The notes under the pieces were generated by a model, which ran no database searches, was not told where the DNA came from, and saw only the letters and a program-made list of their open reading frames with translations. Shown here piece by piece: positions 3,341 through 24,832 of a DNA stretch of 24,856 bases. The position numbers were made by a program, and so were the translations under genes. Numbering within the stretch: the stretch's first letter is position 1; each line of letters begins with the position of its first letter. Source of the stretch: an uncultured Bdellovibrionales bacterium (GTDB lineage Bacteria; Pseudomonadota; Alphaproteobacteria; Micavibrionales; SZUA-601); the NCBI GenBank assembly GCA_964426595.1, contig CAYRRF010000001.1, positions 16,553 to 41,408 of the forward strand, written 5' to 3'.

Positions 3341-3368
3341 ACAATACCCGCTTTCCAAAGGCTTGCAA
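3341..3368 (-). promoter_or_regulatory. Candidate sigma70 promoter for sucB-lpdA
   Basis: The minus strand reads TTGCAA-N16-TATTGT, 42 nt upstream of the sucB ATG. Confidence 0.35.
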
Positions 3369-3404
3369 GAGGGCTGCTGCCACACAAAGTTATGCGAATC
3401 GTGC

Positions 3405-3433
3405 TTGACAATAATCGGAAAATGGGTTATTTT
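3405..3433 (+). promoter_or_regulatory. Sigma70-type promoter of the orphan ORF pair
   Basis: TTGACA (3405-3410)-N17-TATTTT (3428-3433), followed by AGGAG and ATG at 3465. Confidence 0.6.
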
Positions 3434-3464
3434 GTTTCTTAATTTAACAAAAAGGAGTAATAAA

Positions 3465-3851
3465 ATGCCATTTCCATTTGCACAAGAAGTTGTCGTTGAT
3501 GATAGAAAAGAATATTGTTTTGACGAGGTTATTGTTCGCTACACACCCCGTAGTGTAGCACATGTTGGCGTCGATCCCACCAGTATCCATTATATGGATA
3601 AAATTGGTAATGCAGATATGCCGGAGGAATTACTTGAAAAACCTGCAGTGCCAGAAGCGGATCAAACAACTGAAGAATGTGTTGAGCAATCCGAAGGAAA
3701 CTTGACGGAAGGGCACTGGGGAAACCCACTAAGCGGTAGATCGCGAATTCATTCGACGTTGCATTCTTTCCATCAAAATAATGTGCAATATATAGGTGCC
3801 GCATTAGAGAATGATGGCGTACGTAAAAAATCTTTGTCATTCAACTCATAA
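3465..3851 (+). CDS. Hypothetical protein, 128 aa, acidic middle region, no recognised family
   Basis: Strong SD (AAAGGAG) 8 nt before ATG 3465, an upstream promoter, and it fills an otherwise empty interval. Start moved from 3363. Confidence 0.65.
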   Translation: MPFPFAQEVVVDDRKEYCFDEVIVRYTPRSVAHVGVDPTSIHYMDKIGNADMPEELLEKPAVPEADQTTEECVEQSEGNLTEGHWGNPLSGRSRIHSTLHSFHQNNVQYIGAALENDGVRKKSLSFNS

Positions 3852-5620: not shown

Positions 5621-6055
5621 TTATAGTACTTCGTTGAGTTTGAAATGGATCGGCAGCTTGTCCGAAATGCCTTGGACACCGACCGCCGAATAGGTCGGGC
5701 CGTCCATGACCGTTTGCTTGGCGGCGGTCATGATCAGGTTTACCATACGCTCGGTAACGTTCTTGGCAGCGACCAGAGCTTTTTGATTGGCTTCGGATGC
5801 TTTCAGATAGCGCTGATGCATGTTGCGAAGTTTGTCTTTCAGTGTTTCGTTTAAAGCATGCAGATGTGGCAGATCCGCTTCAAAAGCCAGTATCGCATCC
5901 TGGTATTGTTGTGCGAGCAGAATTTTCGTGTCTTGGATGGAAGCAAATGTCTGGTAATCAGCAGTTGCAAGGGCTTTGGTCTCGTATTCCAAAAACTGGC
6001 TGAAGTTTTCGACGGCATCAAGCGTATTAGCGACTTTGATTTCAAGCGTTGACAT
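5621..6055 (-). CDS. FlbY/FlgN-like helical flagellar accessory protein
   Basis: About 144 aa, predicted helical, third gene of the flgI-flgJ operon, with C-terminal PTYSAVG. Alphaproteobacteria carry a FlgN-like/FlbY gene at this position. The start is uncertain (6055 or 6085). Confidence 0.6.
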   Translation of the reverse strand: MSTLEIKVANTLDAVENFSQFLEYETKALATADYQTFASIQDTKILLAQQYQDAILAFEADLPHLHALNETLKDKLRNMHQRYLKASEANQKALVAAKNVTERMVNLIMTAAKQTVMDGPTYSAVGVQGISDKLPIHFKLNEVL

Positions 6056-6389
6056 GGGGAGCAGCTCCGGCGTGGGGATTGTCATGAAGTTCTTGGACGC
6101 GCAGCATTTCGCGGGTGAGGACTTTGGACAGGCCGGTTTGGCCCGAGGAAGCAATTTTTTGACCGTACTGTTCGATCATCAGGGAGCGGAAAATCTCTTC
6201 GCCGCGGCCGCCGCCAAAAGGTCCATCGGTTTCGATACCTTCGTACATATGGCCCAGCATTTCCGTCATAAACAGCGCCTCGAATTTTTTGGCAGCCTCA
6301 GCAAAGGGTTTCATGGGATCGCGTGCGTGCGCTTTGCCGGGTCCGCTGGCGAGTGCAAGAGGCGATACGGGTGAGGCCACAGACGTCAT
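6042..6389 (-). CDS. flgJ: Short FlgJ, rod-binding domain only (no muramidase domain)
   Basis: AAKKFEALFMTEML..MYEG...DGPFGGGRGEEIFRSLMIEQYG..IA..G..GL is the Rod-binding motif. The gene begins 2 nt after flgI. Confidence 0.88.
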   Translation of the reverse strand: MTSVASPVSPLALASGPGKAHARDPMKPFAEAAKKFEALFMTEMLGHMYEGIETDGPFGGGRGEEIFRSLMIEQYGQKIASSGQTGLSKVLTREMLRVQELHDNPHAGAAPHVNA

Positions 6390-7675: not shown

Positions 7676-8098
7676 ATGAAGATAGAAGGACCCGGTAAAA
7701 CCAGTGCCACAGGCAAGACGGACAAGACCAAAAAGGCGGATTCCGTTGGGGGTAGCTCGTTTGCCGAGTTATTGACCGGGGCAGGGGATGTCGAGGCCAG
7801 CACGGCTCCGACGAATGTCGCCGGGGTCAGTATGTATGTCGCCCTGCAGGCAGCCGAGCATGCCACCGAACACGAGAATCGCCGCCGGGCCATTATCCAT
7901 GCCGGGGACCTGCTGGACGATCTGGAAGATCTGCGGATCGGGTTGTTGCTAGGTAGTTATACGAAAAATCAGCTGCACCAGCTGGCCGGGCGGGTGCGTC
8001 AGCAGCGGCTGGTGGTAAGCGATCCCAAGATTATGGCCCTCTTGGACGATATTGCATTGCGGGCGGCGGTAGAGCTAGCCAAATACGAGACCCTGTGA
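7676..8098 (+). CDS. fliX: Flagellar assembly regulator FliX
   Basis: MKIEGP start, RRRAI..AGDLLDDLEDLRIGLL.G and C-terminal LRAAVELAK. Divergent from flgI, as in Caulobacter. Confidence 0.93.
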   Translation: MKIEGPGKTSATGKTDKTKKADSVGGSSFAELLTGAGDVEASTAPTNVAGVSMYVALQAAEHATEHENRRRAIIHAGDLLDDLEDLRIGLLLGSYTKNQLHQLAGRVRQQRLVVSDPKIMALLDDIALRAAVELAKYETL

Positions 8099-8136
8099 TA
8101 CATTCCCCCGATATATGATTTTTGAGGAGATGTCCC

Positions 8137-8751
8137 TTGCCACCTAAAAAACCTGCTCCCCCTGCAAAGAAGAAAACGTCCGCTCCGGCAAAATCGACGC
8201 CTGCTAAAAAGGCAACGCCCGCGGCCAAAGCGACAGCTCCGGCGAAGAAAGCGCCCTCCAAGCCCATTCAGGTGATTAAAGCGGTCATGCAAAAGATTGC
8301 CTCGCCGCAAAAAGATATTTTGCCCAATACCACCATCGTTCCGCATAACTATGAGCCGACCGACAAAGAAGATTTCATGAACCCGGTAATGCGCGAATAT
8401 TTCCGCCGCCGCTTGCTCGAGTGGCGTGATGAGCTGCTGCGTGAGTCGGAAGAGACCCTGCACAACCTTCATGAAGAAGGTAATATGCAGAAACCGGACA
8501 TCACGGACCGCGCGTCCGAAGAAACGGATCTGGCGATCGAGTTTCGTACCCGTGACCGTGAGCGTAAACTGTTGAACAAAATCAACGAAGCAATCGATCG
8601 TATCGAGGACGGAACCTATGGTTTTTGTGAAGAAACCGGCGACCCGATCCCTGTCAAACGCCTGATTGCGCGGCCGACGGCCACTATGACTCTGGAAGCG
8701 CAAGAGCTGCACGAGCGCCGTGAGCGCACCCAGCGCGACCATTCGGAGTAA
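8137..8751 (+). CDS. dksA: RNA polymerase-binding factor DksA with Lys/Ala/Pro-rich N-terminal extension
   Basis: DITDRASEE coiled-coil tip, RDRERKLLNKI..AI.RIEDGTYGFCEETG and RLIARPTA motifs. TTG 8137 is in frame 7 nt after GAGGAG. Confidence 0.95.
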   Translation: MPPKKPAPPAKKKTSAPAKSTPAKKATPAAKATAPAKKAPSKPIQVIKAVMQKIASPQKDILPNTTIVPHNYEPTDKEDFMNPVMREYFRRRLLEWRDELLRESEETLHNLHEEGNMQKPDITDRASEETDLAIEFRTRDRERKLLNKINEAIDRIEDGTYGFCEETGDPIPVKRLIARPTATMTLEAQELHERRERTQRDHSE

Positions 8752-14874: not shown

Positions 14875-16836
14875 TTAACGAAGTTGTAACAACTCCTGCA
14901 ACATTTGGTCCGATGTACTGATGATCTTCGTCCCGGCCGAATAGGCACGCTGGGTGACGATCATCTTGGAAAACTCGTCCGCCAAGTCGACGTTGGAAGC
15001 TTCCAAAGTACCGCTTTCCACTGTACCGGCCGAGCCTTTTCCGGCTTCGCGCAAGTTGTAAACACCACTCTCGTTACTTTGCTGATAGATGTTACCGTTT
15101 TTAGCGGCAAGACCGTTAGCGTTCGAGAAAGTAGCGATCGGCAACTTGTACAGTTTTGTACTTTGACCGTTACTGAAACGAGCAACCACATAACCATCTT
15201 TGTCGATGGATACGCCGGTTCTCAATCCCAGCTCAGCACCGTTTTGGTTCGTGTAAACAGTGTTGTTTTCACTCGCAAACTGTGTGAAGTTGTTGATCTT
15301 GATGGAAATATCCTGTGGATCTGAACCGTTCCCCCAAATGATGTTGGTCAAATCAATTGTCGCAGGGTCGGTATTCGAGTTGATCTGACCTGTACCATCA
15401 AAGTTCAACATACCACTGGTCAACAGCAAACCGTTGGAGCCGGATAGCTCAACATGCCACCAGTTTTGCGGGTTAGCGGTCGTGCCCAGAGGTGTCAACA
15501 GGGTTGGTGTTGTCGGAGGGGTGTAGGTGCCGGCCGACAGACCAAGAGCAGCCAAACCAGCCGTGCTGATTTCGGGAGCTGCACCACCGACACCACCCAA
15601 GACCAGGTTTACACCCGATGCGTCAGCTGTGACAATGATCTTTCCGTCTTTGTCGAACTGGGCATTGATCCCCGAGAGCGCGTTGATTTTGGCAACGAGA
15701 TCTGCAGACGTGTCCCCTTCGTCAATGGTAACCGTTTGTGCGGCACTGGCACCTTCTTGTAACGTGAAAGTTTTCGAGTCACGCGGCTGGGTTGTGTATT
15801 GAATACCCAACAGGTTCAGGTTGGCTTCACTGATCTGGGGGCTACCACCGGCCTTGATTTCAATTGGGGTAGAACCTGTCAATACCAAGTTACCGCCTGA
15901 GGCCGCCGCCGGCGAACCCGAGAAGGCGTTGTTAATCGCCGTGACAAGGTTAGCCAATGTCCAGGTTGAGTCCAGAGCGATCGTTTGTGTTTCACCATTC
16001 ATTTTGATGACAAAACTTTCACCTGTGGTCATACCTGAAGCCAATGCACCCAAGGTACCGCCAATGTTGACGCTACTGGTATAGGTAGCTGTCGCCGAAA
16101 TGGCTGGGAACGAGTCAAACAATACCGGCGAGGTCAGGTCTTTTACGGCAACAGTTCCGGCCGCGGTAGCGGTTGGAGATGTTGTGTGGAAAAACTTGAT
16201 CTGCACGTCTTGCGCTTGGCCTAAGCTATCATAGACACGCAGCGAGCTTAAGGCTTGAGCGGTATTGGTCGTAGGAGCCGTCAAAGGATAAACGAAAGGT
16301 TCTTTACGTGCATCCAGGTTAAGACCGATATCGGCAGTGGTGGTAGCGCGTGACAAACCACCCAAGAAGGCGACGTCTACAGGCACCAAGCTACTCAAGT
16401 CACCGCTACTGGCCGGAATGGCGCCATCGGCATCAAGTGGCCAGCCCATCAGGTACTTACCGGCGGGGTTGACCAGGTTGCCCTGGTTATCTTCCGAGAA
16501 CTGACCGGCGCGGGTATAGAAAGCTTCTTGCAAACCGTCAGCGATACTGTCTTTGACGACGAAGAAACCGTTACCGGAAATGGCGATATCCGTACCGGAA
16601 CGCGATTGTTGCAAAATACCTTGTTGGTCAACGCGGGTTAAAGCGGCCGCGCGCACAGCACCCGGCGAGTAAGCCGTAGAACGGGTTTGTGCAGTAACCA
16701 AGCTTGAGAATGAAGCTTCCGTACGTTTGTAACCAACGGTGTTAACGTTGGCAATGTTGTCGGAAATCATACCCATTGCCTGGGATTGCGAGTTAAGCGC
16801 AGACACACCAGCAAAGAGGGCACCGTATAAACTCAT
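14875..16836 (-). CDS. flgE: Flagellar hook protein, long form (653 aa)
   Basis: N-terminal ISDNIANVNTVGYK, YTRAGQF, VYDSLG and C-terminal LEASNVDLADEFSKMIVTQRAYSA motifs; TAAGGAG SD. Confidence 0.97.
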   Translation of the reverse strand: MSLYGALFAGVSALNSQSQAMGMISDNIANVNTVGYKRTEASFSSLVTAQTRSTAYSPGAVRAAALTRVDQQGILQQSRSGTDIAISGNGFFVVKDSIADGLQEAFYTRAGQFSEDNQGNLVNPAGKYLMGWPLDADGAIPASSGDLSSLVPVDVAFLGGLSRATTTADIGLNLDARKEPFVYPLTAPTTNTAQALSSLRVYDSLGQAQDVQIKFFHTTSPTATAAGTVAVKDLTSPVLFDSFPAISATATYTSSVNIGGTLGALASGMTTGESFVIKMNGETQTIALDSTWTLANLVTAINNAFSGSPAAASGGNLVLTGSTPIEIKAGGSPQISEANLNLLGIQYTTQPRDSKTFTLQEGASAAQTVTIDEGDTSADLVAKINALSGINAQFDKDGKIIVTADASGVNLVLGGVGGAAPEISTAGLAALGLSAGTYTPPTTPTLLTPLGTTANPQNWWHVELSGSNGLLLTSGMLNFDGTGQINSNTDPATIDLTNIIWGNGSDPQDISIKINNFTQFASENNTVYTNQNGAELGLRTGVSIDKDGYVVARFSNGQSTKLYKLPIATFSNANGLAAKNGNIYQQSNESGVYNLREAGKGSAGTVESGTLEASNVDLADEFSKMIVTQRAYSAGTKIISTSDQMLQELLQLR

Positions 16837-16870: not shown

Positions 16871-17578
16871 TTATCCATTCTGTGGAGCAGTAGCAGGGGC
16901 CGCAACGAAAGCGGACTGTACAGCACTAATGGGGACCTTCTGGTCACCGATAATCAGCAATACTTGGCCATCGGCATTGGTATCGATGCCGGTCACAAGA
17001 CCAGGTACTACGGCAGTGGTTTTAAGGGCGGCTTGTGCTTGGTTTTGCACAGCAACGGCCAGGGTATAGCTGCCCGGAGGGACGGGTTGGCCTTGATTGT
17101 CTTTGCCATCCCATGTCATGGTGTGTTCGCCGGCAGAAAATGGCGCATCCGAACTCCAGACCACTTGATTGTCTTTATCAAGGATGCTGACTTTGCCTTT
17201 TATGCCGCCTTCATCTTGAACATTATATTTAAAGGTCGTTTTGAAGCCGTCGTAATGCATGAATTGATCGCCGACGTAATTAACATCCAAACCAATATAG
17301 TTTAGGGCCTGGTTGACCGCTGTGGCCTGGTTTAATTGCAGCAACTGGTCCATTTTGTCCGTTTGAGCGATTTGCTGTTCGGTATTGGCCATGGCAATCA
17401 ACTGGCTGGTAAAGTCTTTTGAATCCATCGGATTTAACGGATCCTGGTTTTTCAACTGTGTCGTCAACAGAGTCAAAAACTGGTTATAGGTCTGGGCAAG
17501 GCTTTTCTTAGCGGTTTCGGTTTTATCTGCCGAATTGCTGCTAAGGCCACCAAGAACAAGAGAGGATGAATCAAGCAT
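16871..17578 (-). CDS. flgD: Flagellar hook capping protein
   Basis: FLTLLTTQLKNQDPLNPMDSKDFTSQL and Ig-like GEHTMTWDGKDNQG..VPPGSYT motifs. Confidence 0.97.
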   Translation of the reverse strand: MLDSSSLVLGGLSSNSADKTETAKKSLAQTYNQFLTLLTTQLKNQDPLNPMDSKDFTSQLIAMANTEQQIAQTDKMDQLLQLNQATAVNQALNYIGLDVNYVGDQFMHYDGFKTTFKYNVQDEGGIKGKVSILDKDNQVVWSSDAPFSAGEHTMTWDGKDNQGQPVPPGSYTLAVAVQNQAQAALKTTAVVPGLVTGIDTNADGQVLLIIGDQKVPISAVQSAFVAAPATAPQNG

Positions 17579-17589
17579 TGCGTATCTCC

Positions 17590-19562
17590 TTAGGCGTGAT
17601 AATTCACGCGTGAGTTAGAGAAAACAGGGCCTTCGGCCGCAACGGCGACAGCCATGTCTTTAATTTTAATATCATCGTCGTCGCGCAGCTTGCGTTTGCG
17701 GCTTTCGGAAAAGCCTTGTTGAAATTGACGTTGCTCGCGCAAGTTAAAGCTCATATTTTCCTGATTAGCGTTCAGGCCCGCTCCAGATGAGCGGCATCTT
17801 TTTGCAACAGATTCAATGTTTCAGGGCGCTCTGCAGTGATGACAGTGCTGGTGACACCATCGGCTTTCACAGTTACACGTACATCTACACGGCCCAATTC
17901 AACCGGTGTCATTTGCAACGACATTTGGGTGGATCCCGTATTCAGTTTTTGCTGGATATGCACCATGACTTGTTGGGCGGCCGGCGAGGGCGGCAATTTG
18001 ATTGCTTGCGTGGCTACTGAAGCCGCGGTGCTCAGGCCAAAGCGCGGTGCAGCCGAATCCACTTGCAAAGCGCTGGGCGTTGCAGAGGCGGTTGTATTCG
18101 CAGCAGGCGCGGCGGGTTCCAATGTTTTGGCACCCGAAGCCAATGCTTGAAGCATATCGGTGCGGGGTGTTGCCGAAGCCGACGATGTATCCGAAGGCGC
18201 TACTATCGCGCGTTCCAGTCCGGCAACAGGCTTTTCAAATTTGGGTGCAGGCAAAGATTTATCCGATTTTGAAAATACGGGCACATCTTTGGCGTCGTCC
18301 GTTGTTTCACGAGAGCTATCGGAAAATACTTTGGAAACAGCAGGAGCGGCAGCGGCAAAGCTAGTTGCAACTGGCGTTGTTTTGTCTGCTAACACGGGTA
18401 CCGAAGCTTTTGCAACAGCAGCCGTTTTCTCGGTATCAGCCAGTAAATTGCTAAGTGGCAGACTCATGGAAGCGGCTTTAAGCAAAGCTTTTTCATCGCT
18501 GACTTGTTTGTCAGCACTGGCAACAGGTGCAGGCGTGGATGCAACAGGCGTTTCGACTTCTGCCGCAGGGGCAGCAGGGACCGCTTCTGTTGTACTGGCA
18601 ACAGGTGCAGTTTCTGGAACTGTTTCGGTGGCGGTTTCGGTTACAGCTACAGGTATGATCGTCTCAACGGGTAAAAGCGTAGCATGCGGCAATTCCGAAT
18701 CGCCATCAGTGGTTGTAACAGCCGTTGCAGAATCGTCTTCTGTAACGGCTTCTTCTTCATGATGACATTCATGAGGATGCGTGATGGCGCCTAATAAAAC
18801 ATGTTCCGGATCAATAGCGGAGATAAGCTCTTGTTTTTTATCGGCCAGGGAAGCCAAAACACTATGCTCGGATTTGTTTACCAGCGCTTTCAAGACGCGC
18901 AAAGCCTGTACCGTTGTAACGGGTTGGCCTTCCTGCGCATGTACGTGGACACCGATATCCTTTAAAGCGGATAAAATGTCTGCAGTCCAGACAACGGCAT
19001 TGTCATCAGCTTTTTTAGGTGTGGCGTTGACAAAGGCTTGTTTGAATCCGTCCATGATATCCCGCAACAGCAATGCGGCTTCACCGGCAGGCAATTCGGC
19101 CGGATCTTTTTGTATAAAGGCGTTTAGTTTTGTAACCAATGCCGGCGGCAGGGCGATGGCACCGCTTTCATTGGCTTTAAGCAGGAATTCCGCTACTTTT
19201 TTCAAAGCTTTCAATGGAGCCGGATCTTTGATTGGTGTTTGATCTTTGGCCATCACTTCGCGGATGCGGGCTTTGATGGTGTCTTTGAAATCGGTACGGG
19301 TTGTGTCGGTTGTGCTGACGGTTTTTGTATCGGAAATCTCATATTTTTCCGGAACGCCTACAGAAGTTCTGACAGCGCTTTTGAAAGTTCCTTTTACAGC
19401 CGTATCGTCATGGGAAAGAGATATATGTGTGACCATCAAGTCCATAAAGCCCAAGGCATTGCCTAAATCGGCGCCCATGGCTTCGTTAAAATTGCGTTTG
19501 ACATCCCCCGATAGAGCCGCGGTTGCAAGATTTGGTGCGGGAGTGGGGCGAAGATCGGCCAT
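17590..19562 (-). pseudogene. fliK: Hook-length control protein FliK, frameshifted near 17775-17785 as the sequence stands
   Basis: Ala/Thr/Pro-rich ruler, then QLNPxELGRVxV-type MTPVELGRVDVRV and AERPETLNLLQKDAAHLERA, ending at TGA 17772-17774. The -1 frame continues AGLNANQENMSFNLREQ...RVNYHA to TAA 17590-17592, which forms the flgD SD. Start set at ATG 19562. Confidence 0.8.
18516..18610 (-). repeat. 17-bp direct repeat in the FliK ruler region (APVAS units)
   Basis: ACTGGCAACAGGTGCAG occurs at 18516-18532 and 18594-18610, with a partial copy GCAACAGG at 18541. Confidence 0.7.
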
Positions 19563-19634
19563 GTATATACTCACTTGACGGTGTGTCTGAAAAGATTCTG
19601 GGTTGGACGGGATATTCTTTCCCATGCCTACAGA

Positions 19635-19650
19635 TGCAAACACTGTGCCA
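19635..19650 (-). promoter_or_regulatory. Sigma54 promoter of fliK-flgD-flgE
   Basis: The minus strand reads TGGCACAGTGTTTGCA, matching TGGCAC-N5-TTGCA. Confidence 0.9.
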
Positions 19651-19732: not shown

Positions 19733-20653
19733 TTAGGGCATTTCTTTCAGGGCACGCAGGACCGTAAAGCGGCTGGCGACCATCGCGATGCCACCGGCCA
19801 GAAGCGGTGTCGCCACCAGCAGAGCCCATTGCGCGACAGTCAAATCGACGCCGGGGATCAGGCCACCGCCGATTTTATTTTTGACAAGGGCGACCATGGC
19901 CATGGTCACAAGAGCCATCACAAGGCCCGCGGCGGCTCCTTCCGTGGCCAGACGAAAGGCCTGGCGCTGGAATTGTGTGGCAATATACGAGTCCGTGGCA
20001 CCAATGAGGTGCAGCAAGTCCACCTCTTCGCGGTGCAGCGCCAGACGCGTGCGCGCCGTTGCTGCAACCGTTATCGCAGCCGTAAGAGCCAGAATCAAAG
20101 CAATCGCTAACAGAATCATACGGATTGTTGTAGCAAGCTGAATGATATCTGCCAACCATTCTTGATGGGTGTCCAACGTGGCGCGGGGTACGATTTTTTG
20201 TGCCGTCTGTTCAATTAATGCGTCCGAAGCACTGATATCCTTCAGGCCTTCCAGACGTGTGATATCGATCAATATAGGCAAGGGCAACTCGGACAAGGCA
20301 ACGCCTGTACCCAGCCACGGGCTGACCAGTGCGGCGATATCTTCTTGCGTTAAAACATGGGCGCGAATATGCGACAATTTATTCAATTCCGCGAGCAGTG
20401 TTTTCTGAGTGTCTTCGGTGACAGGGCTGTCTTTTTGGTAAGCAATCTCAATCGTCATGCGGCCGATGATACCGCTGGTCCAATAATCCTGTATGTGATG
20501 CAGAGCAAAGGTAAGGACCAAAGAAAGTGTGGTCAAAAAGGTCATGACGCCGACAATCCACGTGACCAGCTTGCCGCCGCTGCCACGTTGAAGCGGCAGA
20601 TCATAGCGTTTGCGGCGCAAGTGCGGACGCTTTAGCAGCGCGGAAGAGGTCAT
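19733..20653 (-). CDS. ftsX: Cell division permease FtsX
   Basis: One N-terminal TM segment, a periplasmic loop (LVSPWLG...LPLPILID), three more TM segments and EVDLLHLIGAT..YIA.QF. ATGA overlap with ftsE. Confidence 0.93.
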   Translation of the reverse strand: MTSSALLKRPHLRRKRYDLPLQRGSGGKLVTWIVGVMTFLTTLSLVLTFALHHIQDYWTSGIIGRMTIEIAYQKDSPVTEDTQKTLLAELNKLSHIRAHVLTQEDIAALVSPWLGTGVALSELPLPILIDITRLEGLKDISASDALIEQTAQKIVPRATLDTHQEWLADIIQLATTIRMILLAIALILALTAAITVAATARTRLALHREEVDLLHLIGATDSYIATQFQRQAFRLATEGAAAGLVMALVTMAMVALVKNKIGGGLIPGVDLTVAQWALLVATPLLAGGIAMVASRFTVLRALKEMP

Positions 20654-21330
20654 GCCGCTTTCCTTTTGGTGCCTTGCAGAACTTGGACAGAACCGTTTTC
20701 AAGAAGGAGCTGCGGATGCCCAAATTGTTCGACCAGTCCCTGATTGTGTGTAGCAACGATAAGGGTGGTACCCATACGGTGTAACTCATCAAAAAGATGC
20801 ATCAGGCGCATGCCGATCTGATCGTCCAAGTTACCCGTCGGTTCGTCGGCCAGCAACAGGCGCGGATGGCTGATGACAGCACGGGCAATGGCGACACGCT
20901 GTTTTTGTCCGCCCGACAGGATTGGCGGCTTGGCATGCATATGATCGCCGAGGCCCACCCATTTGAGAAGGTCGGTGACATTGCTGCGAATTTCTTTTTC
21001 CTCGCGGTACGAAATGCGCAAGGGCAGGGCCACGTTGTCAAAGACCGACAGATGATCCAACAGACGGAAATCCTGGAAAACGACGCCGATCTCGCGGCGC
21101 AAGGGCATGATGCCTTCGCGGTTAAGGCGGTGAATATCCTGGCCAAAAATGCTCAATTTGCCGCGTGTCGGGCGCATGCCCAAATAGAGTAGGCGCAGCA
21201 GCGAGGATTTTCCAGCGCCCGACGGTCCGGTGAGAAAATGGAAAGAGCCGGGTGCCAGGGTGAAATCCAGATCATGCAAGATTTCCGGGCCTGTTCCATA
21301 GCGTAGCGCGACGTTTTCAAACTTTATCAT
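20650..21330 (-). CDS. ftsE: Cell division ATP-binding protein FtsE
   Basis: Walker [20 protein letters not shown], signature LSGGQKQR, Walker [12 protein letters not shown] and ATHN. Start moved from 21771 to ATG 21330. Confidence 0.96.
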
Positions 21331-21369
21331 AGGCCGAAGATAACGTCCCTTGAGAGGCTTGTCACCCCT

Positions 21370-21384
21370 GTAAATTAAGGTTAA
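21370..21384. promoter_or_regulatory. CtrA-like box in the divergent ftsE/alaS intergenic region
   Basis: GTAA-N7-TTAA (TTAA-N7-TTAC on the minus strand), one mismatch to consensus. Confidence 0.4.
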
Positions 21385-21414
21385 AATGCACAAAAACGGA
21401 AACCAGAGGGGCTC

Positions 21415-24072
21415 ATGAAAACAGTTTCGGCAACACGGCGCGCATTTTTGGATTATTTTGCCAAACAGGGGCATGTGGTATGCCCTTCGGCGCCACTCGT
21501 GCCCCAAAATGACCCAACCCTGATGTTCACAACAGCGGGGATGGTTCCGTTCAAGGATTATTTTACGGGCAAGGATACGCCTAAATTCAACCGTGCGACC
21601 TCGGCGCAAAAATGCGTGCGTGCAGGGGGCAAGCATAACGACCTCGAGAATGTCGGGTACACGGCGCGCCACCACACGTTTTTTGAAATGCTGGGAAATT
21701 TCTCCTTTGGCGATTATTTCAAAGAAGAAGCAATTTCGTATGCGTGGGAACTGGTAACGAAAATCTATCAACTGCCCAAAGAAAAATTACTGGTCACGGT
21801 GTATCATACCGATGATGAGGCGGCCAAGCTGTGGAAAAAGATAGCCGGGCTGCCAGAGGAAAAGATCATTCGTATCGCAACCTCTGATAATTTCTGGTCC
21901 ATGGGCGATACCGGCCCGTGTGGCCCGTGCACCGAGATCTTCTTTGATCATGGCGAAGAGGTGAAGGGCGGTCCTCCGGGAAGTGCGGATGAGGATGGCG
22001 ATCGCTTTATGGAGATCTGGAATCTGGTCTTCATGCAGTACGAGCAAATCGATAAAGACACGCGCACGAATTTGCCCAAGCCTTCGATCGATACCGGTAT
22101 GGGTCTTGAGCGTATCTCGGGTATTTTGCAAGGCAAGCGGGATAACTATGACACGGATCTGTTCCAGGCACTGATCCAGGCGACGTGCGATCTAACGGGC
22201 ACCAAGCAGGAAGGTGAGCACCGCATTTCGCAGCGTGTGATTGCCGATCACTTGCGCTCGGCGTCGTTCCTGATCGCGCAAGGTGTCGCCCCCAGTAACG
22301 AAGGGCGCGGCTATGTATTGCGCCGTATTATGCGCCGTGCGATGCGCCATGCCCACCTTTTAGGCGCTAAAGAGCCGTTGATGCACCGCGTCTTGCCGAC
22401 ATTGATCAATATGATGGGGCAAGACCATCACGAATTAATTGAACACGAAGCGCTTGTGCGGGAAACATTGTATCGCGAAGAAAACCGTTTCCGCGAGACA
22501 TTGGCCCGTGGCTTGAAATTATTGGAAGACGAAATTCAAAAACTTCCAGGCAAAGGCACATTGCCCGGCGATGTGGCGTTTAAACTCTATGATACGTTTG
22601 GCTTCCCGCTGGATCTGACCGAGGATATTCTGGTGCGTGGCGGCTATGCTTTGGATCATGCCGGCTTTGAAGCGTCGATGCAAAAGCAGCAAGACACGGC
22701 GCGCGCTTCATGGGTGGGCTCGGGGGACAAGACGACCGACAAAGTCTGGTTTGATGTCCAAGGCACGTTGGGTGGCTTCGAATTCCTGGGCTACACCACG
22801 ACCAAAGCACAAGGTGTGGTCAAAGCATTGGTCAAAGAGGGTGCAGTTGTTAAAACGGCTAAGGCTGGCGAAAAAGTCGCCGTGGTGCTTTCGCAGACGC
22901 CTTTTTACGCGGAAAGCGGCGGACAGATCGGGGATACGGGCGTTTTACGTGGCGAACAAGGACAGATTTTGCAGGTAACAGACACACAAAAACCGATTGG
23001 GACCTTTCATGTGCATTTTGTCACAGTGGAAAAAGGAACGATCACTGTCGGGGATGCGGTCGAGGCACAGGTGGATGCATCGCGCCGTCATAAATTGCAA
23101 CAGCATCACTCGGCCACGCATTTGTTACACGAAGCCTTGCGCCGCCATTTGGGCGATCATGTGGCGCAAAAAGGATCGCTGGTCGAGCCCAATCGCTTGC
23201 GCCTTGATTTTAGCCAGCCGGAAGCCTTGACCGATGCACAGTTGGAGCAAATTACGGAAGAAGTGCGGACTAAAATTCAAAATGCCACGGCGGTGAATAC
23301 ACGGGTAATGAGCCTGGAAGAAGCGAAACAAACCGGTGCGCGCGCCTTATTTGGTGAAAAATACGGGGATGAAGTGCGCGTGATCAGCATGGGGGATCTT
23401 GAAGCAGAGCGAAACCGTGTCTATTCGATCGAATTTTGCGGTGGGACGCATGTGAAGAATACAGCCGAAATCGGAGCCTTTCGTATCGTATCGGAAAGCA
23501 GCGTGTCTTCGGGTGTTCGCCGTATTCAGGCCGTCGTCGGGGTGGAAGCGGAAAAACTGGCCGAACAGGACCGTATGACGATTGAACACATTGCCCAGAT
23601 ATTCAAAGCCGCACCGGCAGAAGTGCTGGAGCGTGTCCAGAAACTGCAGCAGGAGAATCATCTTTTAAGCACTGAAGTCGGATCCTTGCGCAAGAAGCTA
23701 GCGATGGGCGGTGGCGGTTCGTCCTCCCAAGAGGTCGAGCAAGTCGGTAATGTCAAATTTATCGGCAAGACGTTCGACGATCTGCCGGCCAAAGATTTAA
23801 AGTCGCTGGCGGATCAGTTTAAAAAGCAGATCGGCTCGGGTGTGGTTGTTTTGATCACCAAAGCCGAAGGGCGTGCCTCGCTGGTCGCCGGGGTGACGGA
23901 CGATCTGGTTGCCAAGCTTAGCGCGGTAGATTTGGTGCGTGTCGGAGCAGAAGCTCTGGGTGGCAAGGGGGGCGGCGGCCGGCCGGATATGGCTCAGGCG
24001 GGTGGTCCCAACGCCGAAGACGCTCCGGTGGCGTTAGATCACATTAGGAAAACTCTTTCCAAGGTTGCCTAA
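21415..24072 (+). CDS. alaS: Alanine--tRNA ligase
   Basis: DPTLMFTTAGM, HHTFFEMLGNFSFGDYFK, IDTGMGLER, editing HSATHLLH and EFCGGTHV, and C-terminal GGKGGGRPDMAQAGG motifs. Confidence 0.99.
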   Translation: MKTVSATRRAFLDYFAKQGHVVCPSAPLVPQNDPTLMFTTAGMVPFKDYFTGKDTPKFNRATSAQKCVRAGGKHNDLENVGYTARHHTFFEMLGNFSFGDYFKEEAISYAWELVTKIYQLPKEKLLVTVYHTDDEAAKLWKKIAGLPEEKIIRIATSDNFWSMGDTGPCGPCTEIFFDHGEEVKGGPPGSADEDGDRFMEIWNLVFMQYEQIDKDTRTNLPKPSIDTGMGLERISGILQGKRDNYDTDLFQALIQATCDLTGTKQEGEHRISQRVIADHLRSASFLIAQGVAPSNEGRGYVLRRIMRRAMRHAHLLGAKEPLMHRVLPTLINMMGQDHHELIEHEALVRETLYREENRFRETLARGLKLLEDEIQKLPGKGTLPGDVAFKLYDTFGFPLDLTEDILVRGGYALDHAGFEASMQKQQDTARASWVGSGDKTTDKVWFDVQGTLGGFEFLGYTTTKAQGVVKALVKEGAVVKTAKAGEKVAVVLSQTPFYAESGGQIGDTGVLRGEQGQILQVTDTQKPIGTFHVHFVTVEKGTITVGDAVEAQVDASRRHKLQQHHSATHLLHEALRRHLGDHVAQKGSLVEPNRLRLDFSQPEALTDAQLEQITEEVRTKIQNATAVNTRVMSLEEAKQTGARALFGEKYGDEVRVISMGDLEAERNRVYSIEFCGGTHVKNTAEIGAFRIVSESSVSSGVRRIQAVVGVEAEKLAEQDRMTIEHIAQIFKAAPAEVLERVQKLQQENHLLSTEVGSLRKKLAMGGGGSSSQEVEQVGNVKFIGKTFDDLPAKDLKSLADQFKKQIGSGVVVLITKAEGRASLVAGVTDDLVAKLSAVDLVRVGAEALGGKGGGGRPDMAQAGGPNAEDAPVALDHIRKTLSKVA

Positions 24073-24148: not shown

Positions 24149-24832
24149 GTGAGTAAAAAAGGCAAACGACGATTCCGAAAGCCCAGCCTTCGAACGCGCG
24201 CCGCGATCTATGCGTTGTTTACGGCCTCGGCCGTTTTGTGCGCTGTCAGCTATAAGCAATGGCAAGATGGTCAGCGGCGTTATTGGGAACAAATGCAACA
24301 CGTCGAGGCGATGAAACTGAACAAGTCGCTGTCCGGCAATTATCTGGCGGCGCGTTTTGCGGTGGCAGTGGATGATCTGCGTTCGGCCTCTCATTACTAT
24401 GATCGTTCACTGGAATACACGAAAGACAAGGATTTTATTATCCAGCGCGCTTTGCCTGCGGCTATTGGAGCAGGGGATATTAAAGAAGCGTTGCGTTTAT
24501 CACAAGGCATGGATTTAAAGCAGCCCAGCTTGAACGCGCAACTGGGTGTGATGGTGCAATTGATTGATGCGTTTAAACGTTCGGATGCTGCCAAGGTAGC
24601 TGAACTTTTGCCCCTCATGCGTGAAGAGGGTTTCGGACGCTTGTTGTCGCCTTTGATCATGACGTGGTCCGAGGCATTGAAACAAAAGCCTGCCGAAGCT
24701 GTGGCGCGTCTGGATCAGATGGAAAAAGAATATCCGACCGTCAAACCCTTGATAAATGCGCAAAAAGCAGTGGTTTATGAAGTTCAAAAGAAAAACGATC
24801 TAGCGGAAAAATATTTTCTCAAGATAATTTAG
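24149..24832 (+). CDS. Membrane-anchored TPR-like protein, probably only the N-terminal part
   Basis: GGAG SD and GTG start; basic N-terminus plus a hydrophobic segment; SLSGNYLAARFA...D...A..YY..L motif and helical repeats resembling alphaproteobacterial TPR proteins. Stops at TAG 24830-24832, 24 nt from the window end. Confidence 0.65.
   Translation: MSKKGKRRFRKPSLRTRAAIYALFTASAVLCAVSYKQWQDGQRRYWEQMQHVEAMKLNKSLSGNYLAARFAVAVDDLRSASHYYDRSLEYTKDKDFIIQRALPAAIGAGDIKEALRLSQGMDLKQPSLNAQLGVMVQLIDAFKRSDAAKVAELLPLMREEGFGRLLSPLIMTWSEALKQKPAEAVARLDQMEKEYPTVKPLINAQKAVVYEVQKKNDLAEKYFLKII

Follow-up and report, generated by a model that had tools for sequence, protein, structure and literature searches.

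The question raised by this locus is whether the fliK gene of the window (the whole stretch of 24,856 nt that was analysed) encodes a naturally short FliK followed by a small separate reading frame, or whether a once continuous gene has been broken, and in the latter case whether the break belongs to the organism or to its assembly. The MAG is a draft of 1.53 Mb in 180 contigs, one of which, 41.4 kb long, includes the window; its completeness is 85%, its N50 12.7 kb and its GC content 51.5%, and it contains 1881 N. The presence of FliX and FlaF suggests that the organism is an alphaproteobacterium, and a scan of genome contigs with FlgD returned only an unrelated fragment from Planctomycetota. 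The truncated fliK ORF occupies 17772-19643 on the minus strand and gives 623 aa when read from the GTG at 19643, which makes the longest ORF; the start is ambiguous, the other candidate being an ATG at 19562 (MADLRPTP...), which is the one fitted by the 596-aa fliK gene call in the protein collection. Both the ORF and its translation end in ...LQKDAAHLERA-TGA, the final minus-strand codons being CAT CTG GAG CGG GCC TGA (HLERA-stop), and this premature TGA (17774-17772) is a stop created by a frameshift. The -1 frame, followed through the codons at 17790, 17787 and onward, reads SSGAGLNANQENMSFNLREQRQFQQGFSESRKRKLRDDDDIKIKDMAVAVAAEGPVFSNSRVNYHA, and it continues as SSGAGLNANQENMSFNLREQRQF...SRVNYHA to a TAA at 17592-17590. 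The tail orphaned in this way (17590-17781, minus strand; AGLNANQENMSFNL...SRVNYHA) amounts to 63 aa plus the TAA and contains an ATG-started ORF of 54 aa (MSFNLREQ..., 17590-17754, minus strand), whose ATG at 17754 is preceded, at a distance of 4 nt, by a weak AGGA. The next gene is flgD, which encodes the hook cap (16871-17578, minus strand; Pfam FlgD and FlgD_ig), and its Shine-Dalgarno sequence AAGGAG (17591-17586) lies 7 nt ahead of the ATG at 17578 and overlaps the ancestral fliK stop TAA. Directly downstream of flgD is a 653-aa gene for a flgE-type hook protein (14875-16836, minus strand), named from its sequence and from the gene order fliK, flgD, flgE. An earlier note on this DNA had described a main frame ending HLERA-TGA at 17772 and a -1 frame running to SRVNYHA-TAA with its stop inside the flgD Shine-Dalgarno sequence, and reading of the minus-strand frames bears out both descriptions.

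Comparison with related genomes indicates which of the two layouts is the ancestral one. The FliK C-domain was matched in 36 of 40 such genomes, and in all 36 the frame containing it was 453-675 aa long and uninterrupted by stops. In the 19 relatives whose C-termini were read, the protein extended ~60-70 residues beyond LE[KR]xL in a single frame in every case, with the consensus LQKDxxxLExxLxxAG(L/I)xxxxxx(L/M)SFxL and a hydrophobic ending of the VNYHA or VNIMV type. The pattern LERALxxAGL..LxFxL, which the earlier note gives for alphaproteobacterial FliK, was thus recovered, the relatives reading LERALxxAGL..SFxL in one ORF; a natural ending at LERA, the alternative raised there, was found in none of the relatives read and the deletion reading stands. 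The closest other species found, represented by an ENA metagenome contig (L028) with 68% identity across the C-terminal half, reads HLERALQQAGLNANQENMSFNLREQRQ...RINYHA in a single frame, shares the stretch HLERALQQAGLNANQENMSFNL, and has a fliK TAA that runs into the ribosome-binding site of flgD just as in the window. Because the orphaned tail lines up, residue by residue, with the C-terminal ends of 13 relatives and of L028, it is not a chance open frame. Exactly three columns of that alignment are absent between LERA and AGLN, and three missing codons together with seven bases that are read twice (GCGGGCC) give 16 missing nt. A word-indexed protein search with the C-terminal half of FliK returned the 596-aa call of the organism itself and otherwise only distant relatives, which covered 29-67% of the query at 52-65% identity; no near-identical intact FliK protein was among its matches.

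The break falls within the domain that defines the C-terminal part of FliK. Pfam Flg_hook (PF02120) matches residues 563-622 of the truncated protein with 44.1 bits against a cut-off of 29.8, but the match covers only profile positions 4-62 of 85, whereas in intact relatives it reaches positions 73-81 of 85. A profile of the aligned C-domains matched the NMR structure of the Salmonella FliK C-domain (2RRL) with E = 1.5e-4 and the T3S4 domain of an injectisome ruler (5CUK) with E = 0.0023, the latter over the same helix-strand region. In the alignment with 2RRL the break sits inside the last helix (LPMLRTQLAESG) of the compact core, a placement that follows from the alignment of ...LLQKDAAHLERA|LQQAGL... 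in the window with ...ALEAALPMLRTQLAESGI... in Salmonella. The T3S4 core, in particular its last helix and final strand, is therefore incomplete in the main frame and its remainder, followed by the C-terminal tail, is encoded in the -1 frame. Altogether the truncated FliK is without its last 66 residues, comprising the end of the helix, the final strand (MSFNL), a disordered tail and the terminal VNYHA; the hydrophobic terminal motif ...RVNYHA, which is kept in the relatives, is found only in the orphaned frame. A search of the genome found no second Flg_hook gene besides fliK.

The missing bases themselves could be recovered from public sequencing runs. Thirteen runs, from five wastewater, activated-sludge and freshwater studies, hold 31-mers from the 2-kb stretch around the break, and the Logan contigs of four runs were compared with window positions 17000-19000. 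One bridging contig each in the wastewater or activated-sludge runs X1 and X3 (study P1) and X6 (study P3) carries a 16-nt insertion relative to the window and reads HLERALQQAGLN at the site; the coding strand in X1 is CAT CTG GAG CGC GCC TTA CAA CAG GCG GGC CTG AAC. This intact allele of the same species is translated in one frame as HLERALQQAGLNANQ and yields a FliK of 689 aa, or 662 aa if counted from the ATG that fits the 596-aa call, which contains HLERALQQAGLNANQENMSFNL and ends in RVNYHA. The sequence in X3 equals that in X1, and X6 represents a strain of ~97% identity with one synonymous difference inside the insert and, in the tail, a sole difference from the window, at 17731, where the change CAA to CAG leaves the residue of the tail frame as it is. 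When 16 nt are removed from the X1 allele the exact window sequence results, with four equivalent cut positions, so that the lost 16 bp on the coding strand are CGCCTTACAACAGGCG or one of three equivalent placements. Across the site the deletion allele reads GGAGCG|GGCCTG and the +16-nt allele GGAGCGCGCCTTACAACAGGCGGGCCTG, and a C>G listed at 17778 merely reflects the gap placement of the aligner. The junction (17778-17782, minus strand) has a 3-nt microhomology, GCG, at 17781-17779, within an imperfect 7-nt direct repeat GCGcGCC/GCGgGCC whose copies lie 16 nt apart. The earlier note had proposed a 16-nt deletion between AGCG microhomologies; the size is that of the insertion in X1, X3 and X6, but the microhomology is the shorter GCG.

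Over the 2 kb compared there was no further indel, and the contigs of X1 and of a fourth run, X2, are otherwise identical to the window in the parts that they cover. As X1 and X2 show no other difference and the tail difference in X6 is synonymous, the lesion is younger than any other divergence seen, in line with a very recent lesion, one of the options that the earlier note had drawn from the undecayed tail. Judged from these sequence comparisons, the 16-nt deletion is a strain-level and very recent lesion and not a feature of the lineage. The contig set of X2 has a hole precisely over the junction (17759-17786), the contigs ending 15 nt before and 9 nt after it; the idea that this hole signals two alleles at low depth was rejected, since two more holes of much the same size occur in X2 within the 2 kb.

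Whether the deletion is carried by cells or was introduced on the way to the assembly is the point on which the interpretation turns. The reading preferred here, which we consider reasonably probable, is that of a real and very recent strain-level loss-of-function allele of fliK. A precise loss of 16 nt with flanking microhomology is a signature of biological deletion and is atypical of short-read assemblers, which need the k-mers of a junction in the reads; to our knowledge, a de Bruijn (k-mer) assembler is unable to write a junction that is absent from them. Long-read errors are mostly of 1-3 nt and lie in homopolymers. Apart from fliK, 16 genes of the window matched Pfam, and their profiles were covered completely or almost completely (FlgI 1-343 of 343 and FlgH 2-172 of 172, with FliX, FlaF, FlgA, FlgG, FlgF, MetK, AlaRS and others likewise), which argues that the assembly is not generally prone to indels.

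The strongest rival, somewhat unlikely in our estimation but far from negligible, is that the source organism has the 689-aa fliK and that the gap arose in assembly, in polishing or from a rare aberrant read that entered the consensus. The MAG is a draft in 180 pieces with 85% completeness and 1881 N, and the deletion junction was not seen in any independent data: the three bridging contigs (X1, X3 and X6) all carry the intact allele, even that of X1, which agrees with the window everywhere else that it covers. No run was listed when public runs were queried with 60 nt that had the deletion in the middle, a query of only two sampled words (31-mers), and a pattern scan of JGI metagenome contigs for both alleles (16 + 15 fixed bases with a gap of 1-17) gave no matches. 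A look-up of exact products gave no record of the tail ORF of 54 aa or of the truncated 623-aa FliK, in a search that possibly did not cover the window's own genome. The organism is present in the listed runs at a word depth of 2-7x, at which one or two odd reads may decide a consensus, and the 41-kb contig could stem from a co-assembly or from a polished long-read assembly. Against an artefact stand the biological appearance of a 16-nt loss flanked by microhomology, the agreement of X1 and X2 with the window in every other covered position of the 2 kb, and the full length of the neighbouring genes. The choice that the earlier note had posed between a fresh lesion, a variant in the population and an assembly error is only narrowed by the intact allele in other samples. 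A stronger version of the population variant would be a maintained motility-off subpopulation, in which hook-only fliK-null cells are selected in flocs or against flagellotropic phages or grazers, alongside an intact allele that dominates in other samples; this we regard as improbable.

More doubtful still is a functional arrangement, either by programmed -1 frameshifting or as a split gene in which the 54-aa tail ORF from ATG 17754 acts in trans. The intact tail frame and the AGGA 4 nt ahead of the internal ATG might be taken to favour it, as might the fact that fliK of Caulobacter was long annotated as two overlapping genes (PMC8545394), but the Caulobacter split turned out to be a mis-annotation of one gene. 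No slippery heptamer of the form X_XXY_YYZ occurs in CTGGAGCGGGCCTGA at CTG GAG CGG GCC TGA, and a read-through product would still be short of five residues (the equivalent of LQQAG) that are present in all aligned relatives. The two-frame layout was found in none of the 36 matching relatives and the same species has a single-ORF allele. The identity of the tail to that of the intact allele is explained by the recency of the lesion and not by separate selection. The 54-aa ORF is a by-product of the frameshift; it is without the FliK N-terminus, which in other bacteria is required for export (PMC8545394). With no heptamer, no conservation and an intact allele in the same species, programmed frameshifting and a split gene were rejected as very improbable. 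The weakest alternative, loss of a single base in the GGGCC(C) run to give HLERALNANQ..., has next to no probability and was rejected, for although one added C restores the frame LERALNANQENMSFNL, the product is five residues shorter than in all the relatives, and X1, X3 and X6 show that the intact allele is longer by 16 bases, in agreement with the earlier note's preference for a 16-nt deletion over a 1-nt slip.

If the deletion is a real allele, its origin and effect may be pictured as follows. Sixteen bp would have been lost between the imperfect direct repeats GCGcGCC and GCGgGCC, by replication slippage or by microhomology-mediated deletion, and the resulting shift of frame would bring a TGA stop into play directly after LERA. 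It is with the part removed in this way that FliK acts on FlhB-C and so turns export from hook-type to filament-type substrates. The core of FliK-C has been described as binding FlhB-C and as changing the exported class from rod- and hook-type to filament-type substrates (PMC6972891), and in Salmonella polyhooks result when mutations block switching (PMC6972891; PMC8545394). Switching in other bacteria is reported to depend on the last five residues of FliK, and so is, in Caulobacter, the effect of FliK-C overexpression on motility and flagellin levels (PMC8545394). By analogy the export switch should be lost in the truncated FliK, and the Salmonella and Caulobacter work predicts that cells with the deletion allele would form polyhooks with few or no filaments and would be non-motile. 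A further and minor consequence might be that fliK translation, ending ~180 nt early, is coupled slightly less well into flgD, which carries a strong Shine-Dalgarno sequence of its own.

The flagellar cluster in the window comprises flgI, fliX, flgH, flgA, flgG, flgF, flaF, the flgE-type ORF, flgD and fliK, and both flhA and fliF are intact in the genome. The gene for FlhB, the partner of FliK, was not detected at full length (flhB, PF01312) in the 85%-complete MAG, in which there is only a 111-aa ORF resembling FlhB-C (C84:2272-2514); nine of ten relatives have both an FlhB of 353-375 aa and the short ORF, and as 15% of the genome is missing the lack of flhB is probably an assembly gap. Elsewhere in the genome there are four tandem flagellin genes (open frames of 279-282 aa) and one or two further Flagellin_N genes (C2:25751-29140 and C8:11163-13916), a large flagellin set for a genome of 1.5 Mb. 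Within the window four ORFs of 162-247 aa have no Pfam match at E <= 0.001 (5621-6154, minus; 7999-8742, minus; 3363-3851, plus; and 24149-24832, plus). Of these four, two belong to the flagellar cluster, where one lies downstream of flgI and the other separates fliX from flgH, and the ORF at 7999-8742 overlaps an alternative plus-strand ORF at 8122-8751. An ftsE-like ORF (20650-21771, minus) overlaps the start of alaS (21415-24072, plus) by ~350 nt, its ABC_tran match beginning at residue 165, and in the flgF ORF ~110 residues precede the first domain; the true starts of the ftsE-like and flgF ORFs are probably internal.

What is seen here is either a recent frameshift allele of a familiar gene or a mistake in the draft sequence of the MAG, and its kind is already known. 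Frameshift and C-terminal truncation alleles of fliK form a well-known class of mutants, and the deletion raises no new mechanistic question. Its main value is for annotation and quality control: the right label for the locus is fliK, frameshifted (pseudogene or assembly error), and not a short FliK next to a hypothetical protein of 54 aa, and the FliK proper to the species is the protein of 689 aa read in one frame. Should the allele be real, it would be a modest case of standing variation towards loss of motility, generated by microhomology-mediated deletion in an uncultured bacterium of activated sludge. The locus also illustrates that the size and place of a deletion, as predicted in the earlier note without database searches, can prove exactly correct.

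Among known systems the nearest counterparts are the frameshift and C-terminal truncation alleles of Salmonella enterica fliK, the polyhook mutants, which belong to the same family as judged from Flg_hook (PF02120) and the profile match to 2RRL and which have the same kind of lesion, in that the switch domain lacks its C-terminal part and the tail is missing. The window allele differs from these in being natural, in belonging to an uncultured wastewater bacterium, probably an alphaproteobacterium, with a 1.5-Mb genome and in being known here from sequence alone, and the N-terminal and linker regions of its FliK are unrelated in sequence to those of Salmonella FliK. Injectisome rulers with a T3S4 domain (5CUK, deposited as 'Ruler protein') are distant homologues from a different secretion system, and the comparison with them is useful only for placing the cut within the fold. 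FliK of Caulobacter crescentus (CCNA_00944 + motD) likewise carries a Flg_hook domain in its C-terminal part, with a tail behind it that ends in LDIRI where that of the window ends in VNYHA, and it too was once read as two ORFs (PMC8545394). The Caulobacter split was an annotation error in a continuous gene, whereas the two frames of the window are truly separated, in the assembly, by a 16-bp deletion.
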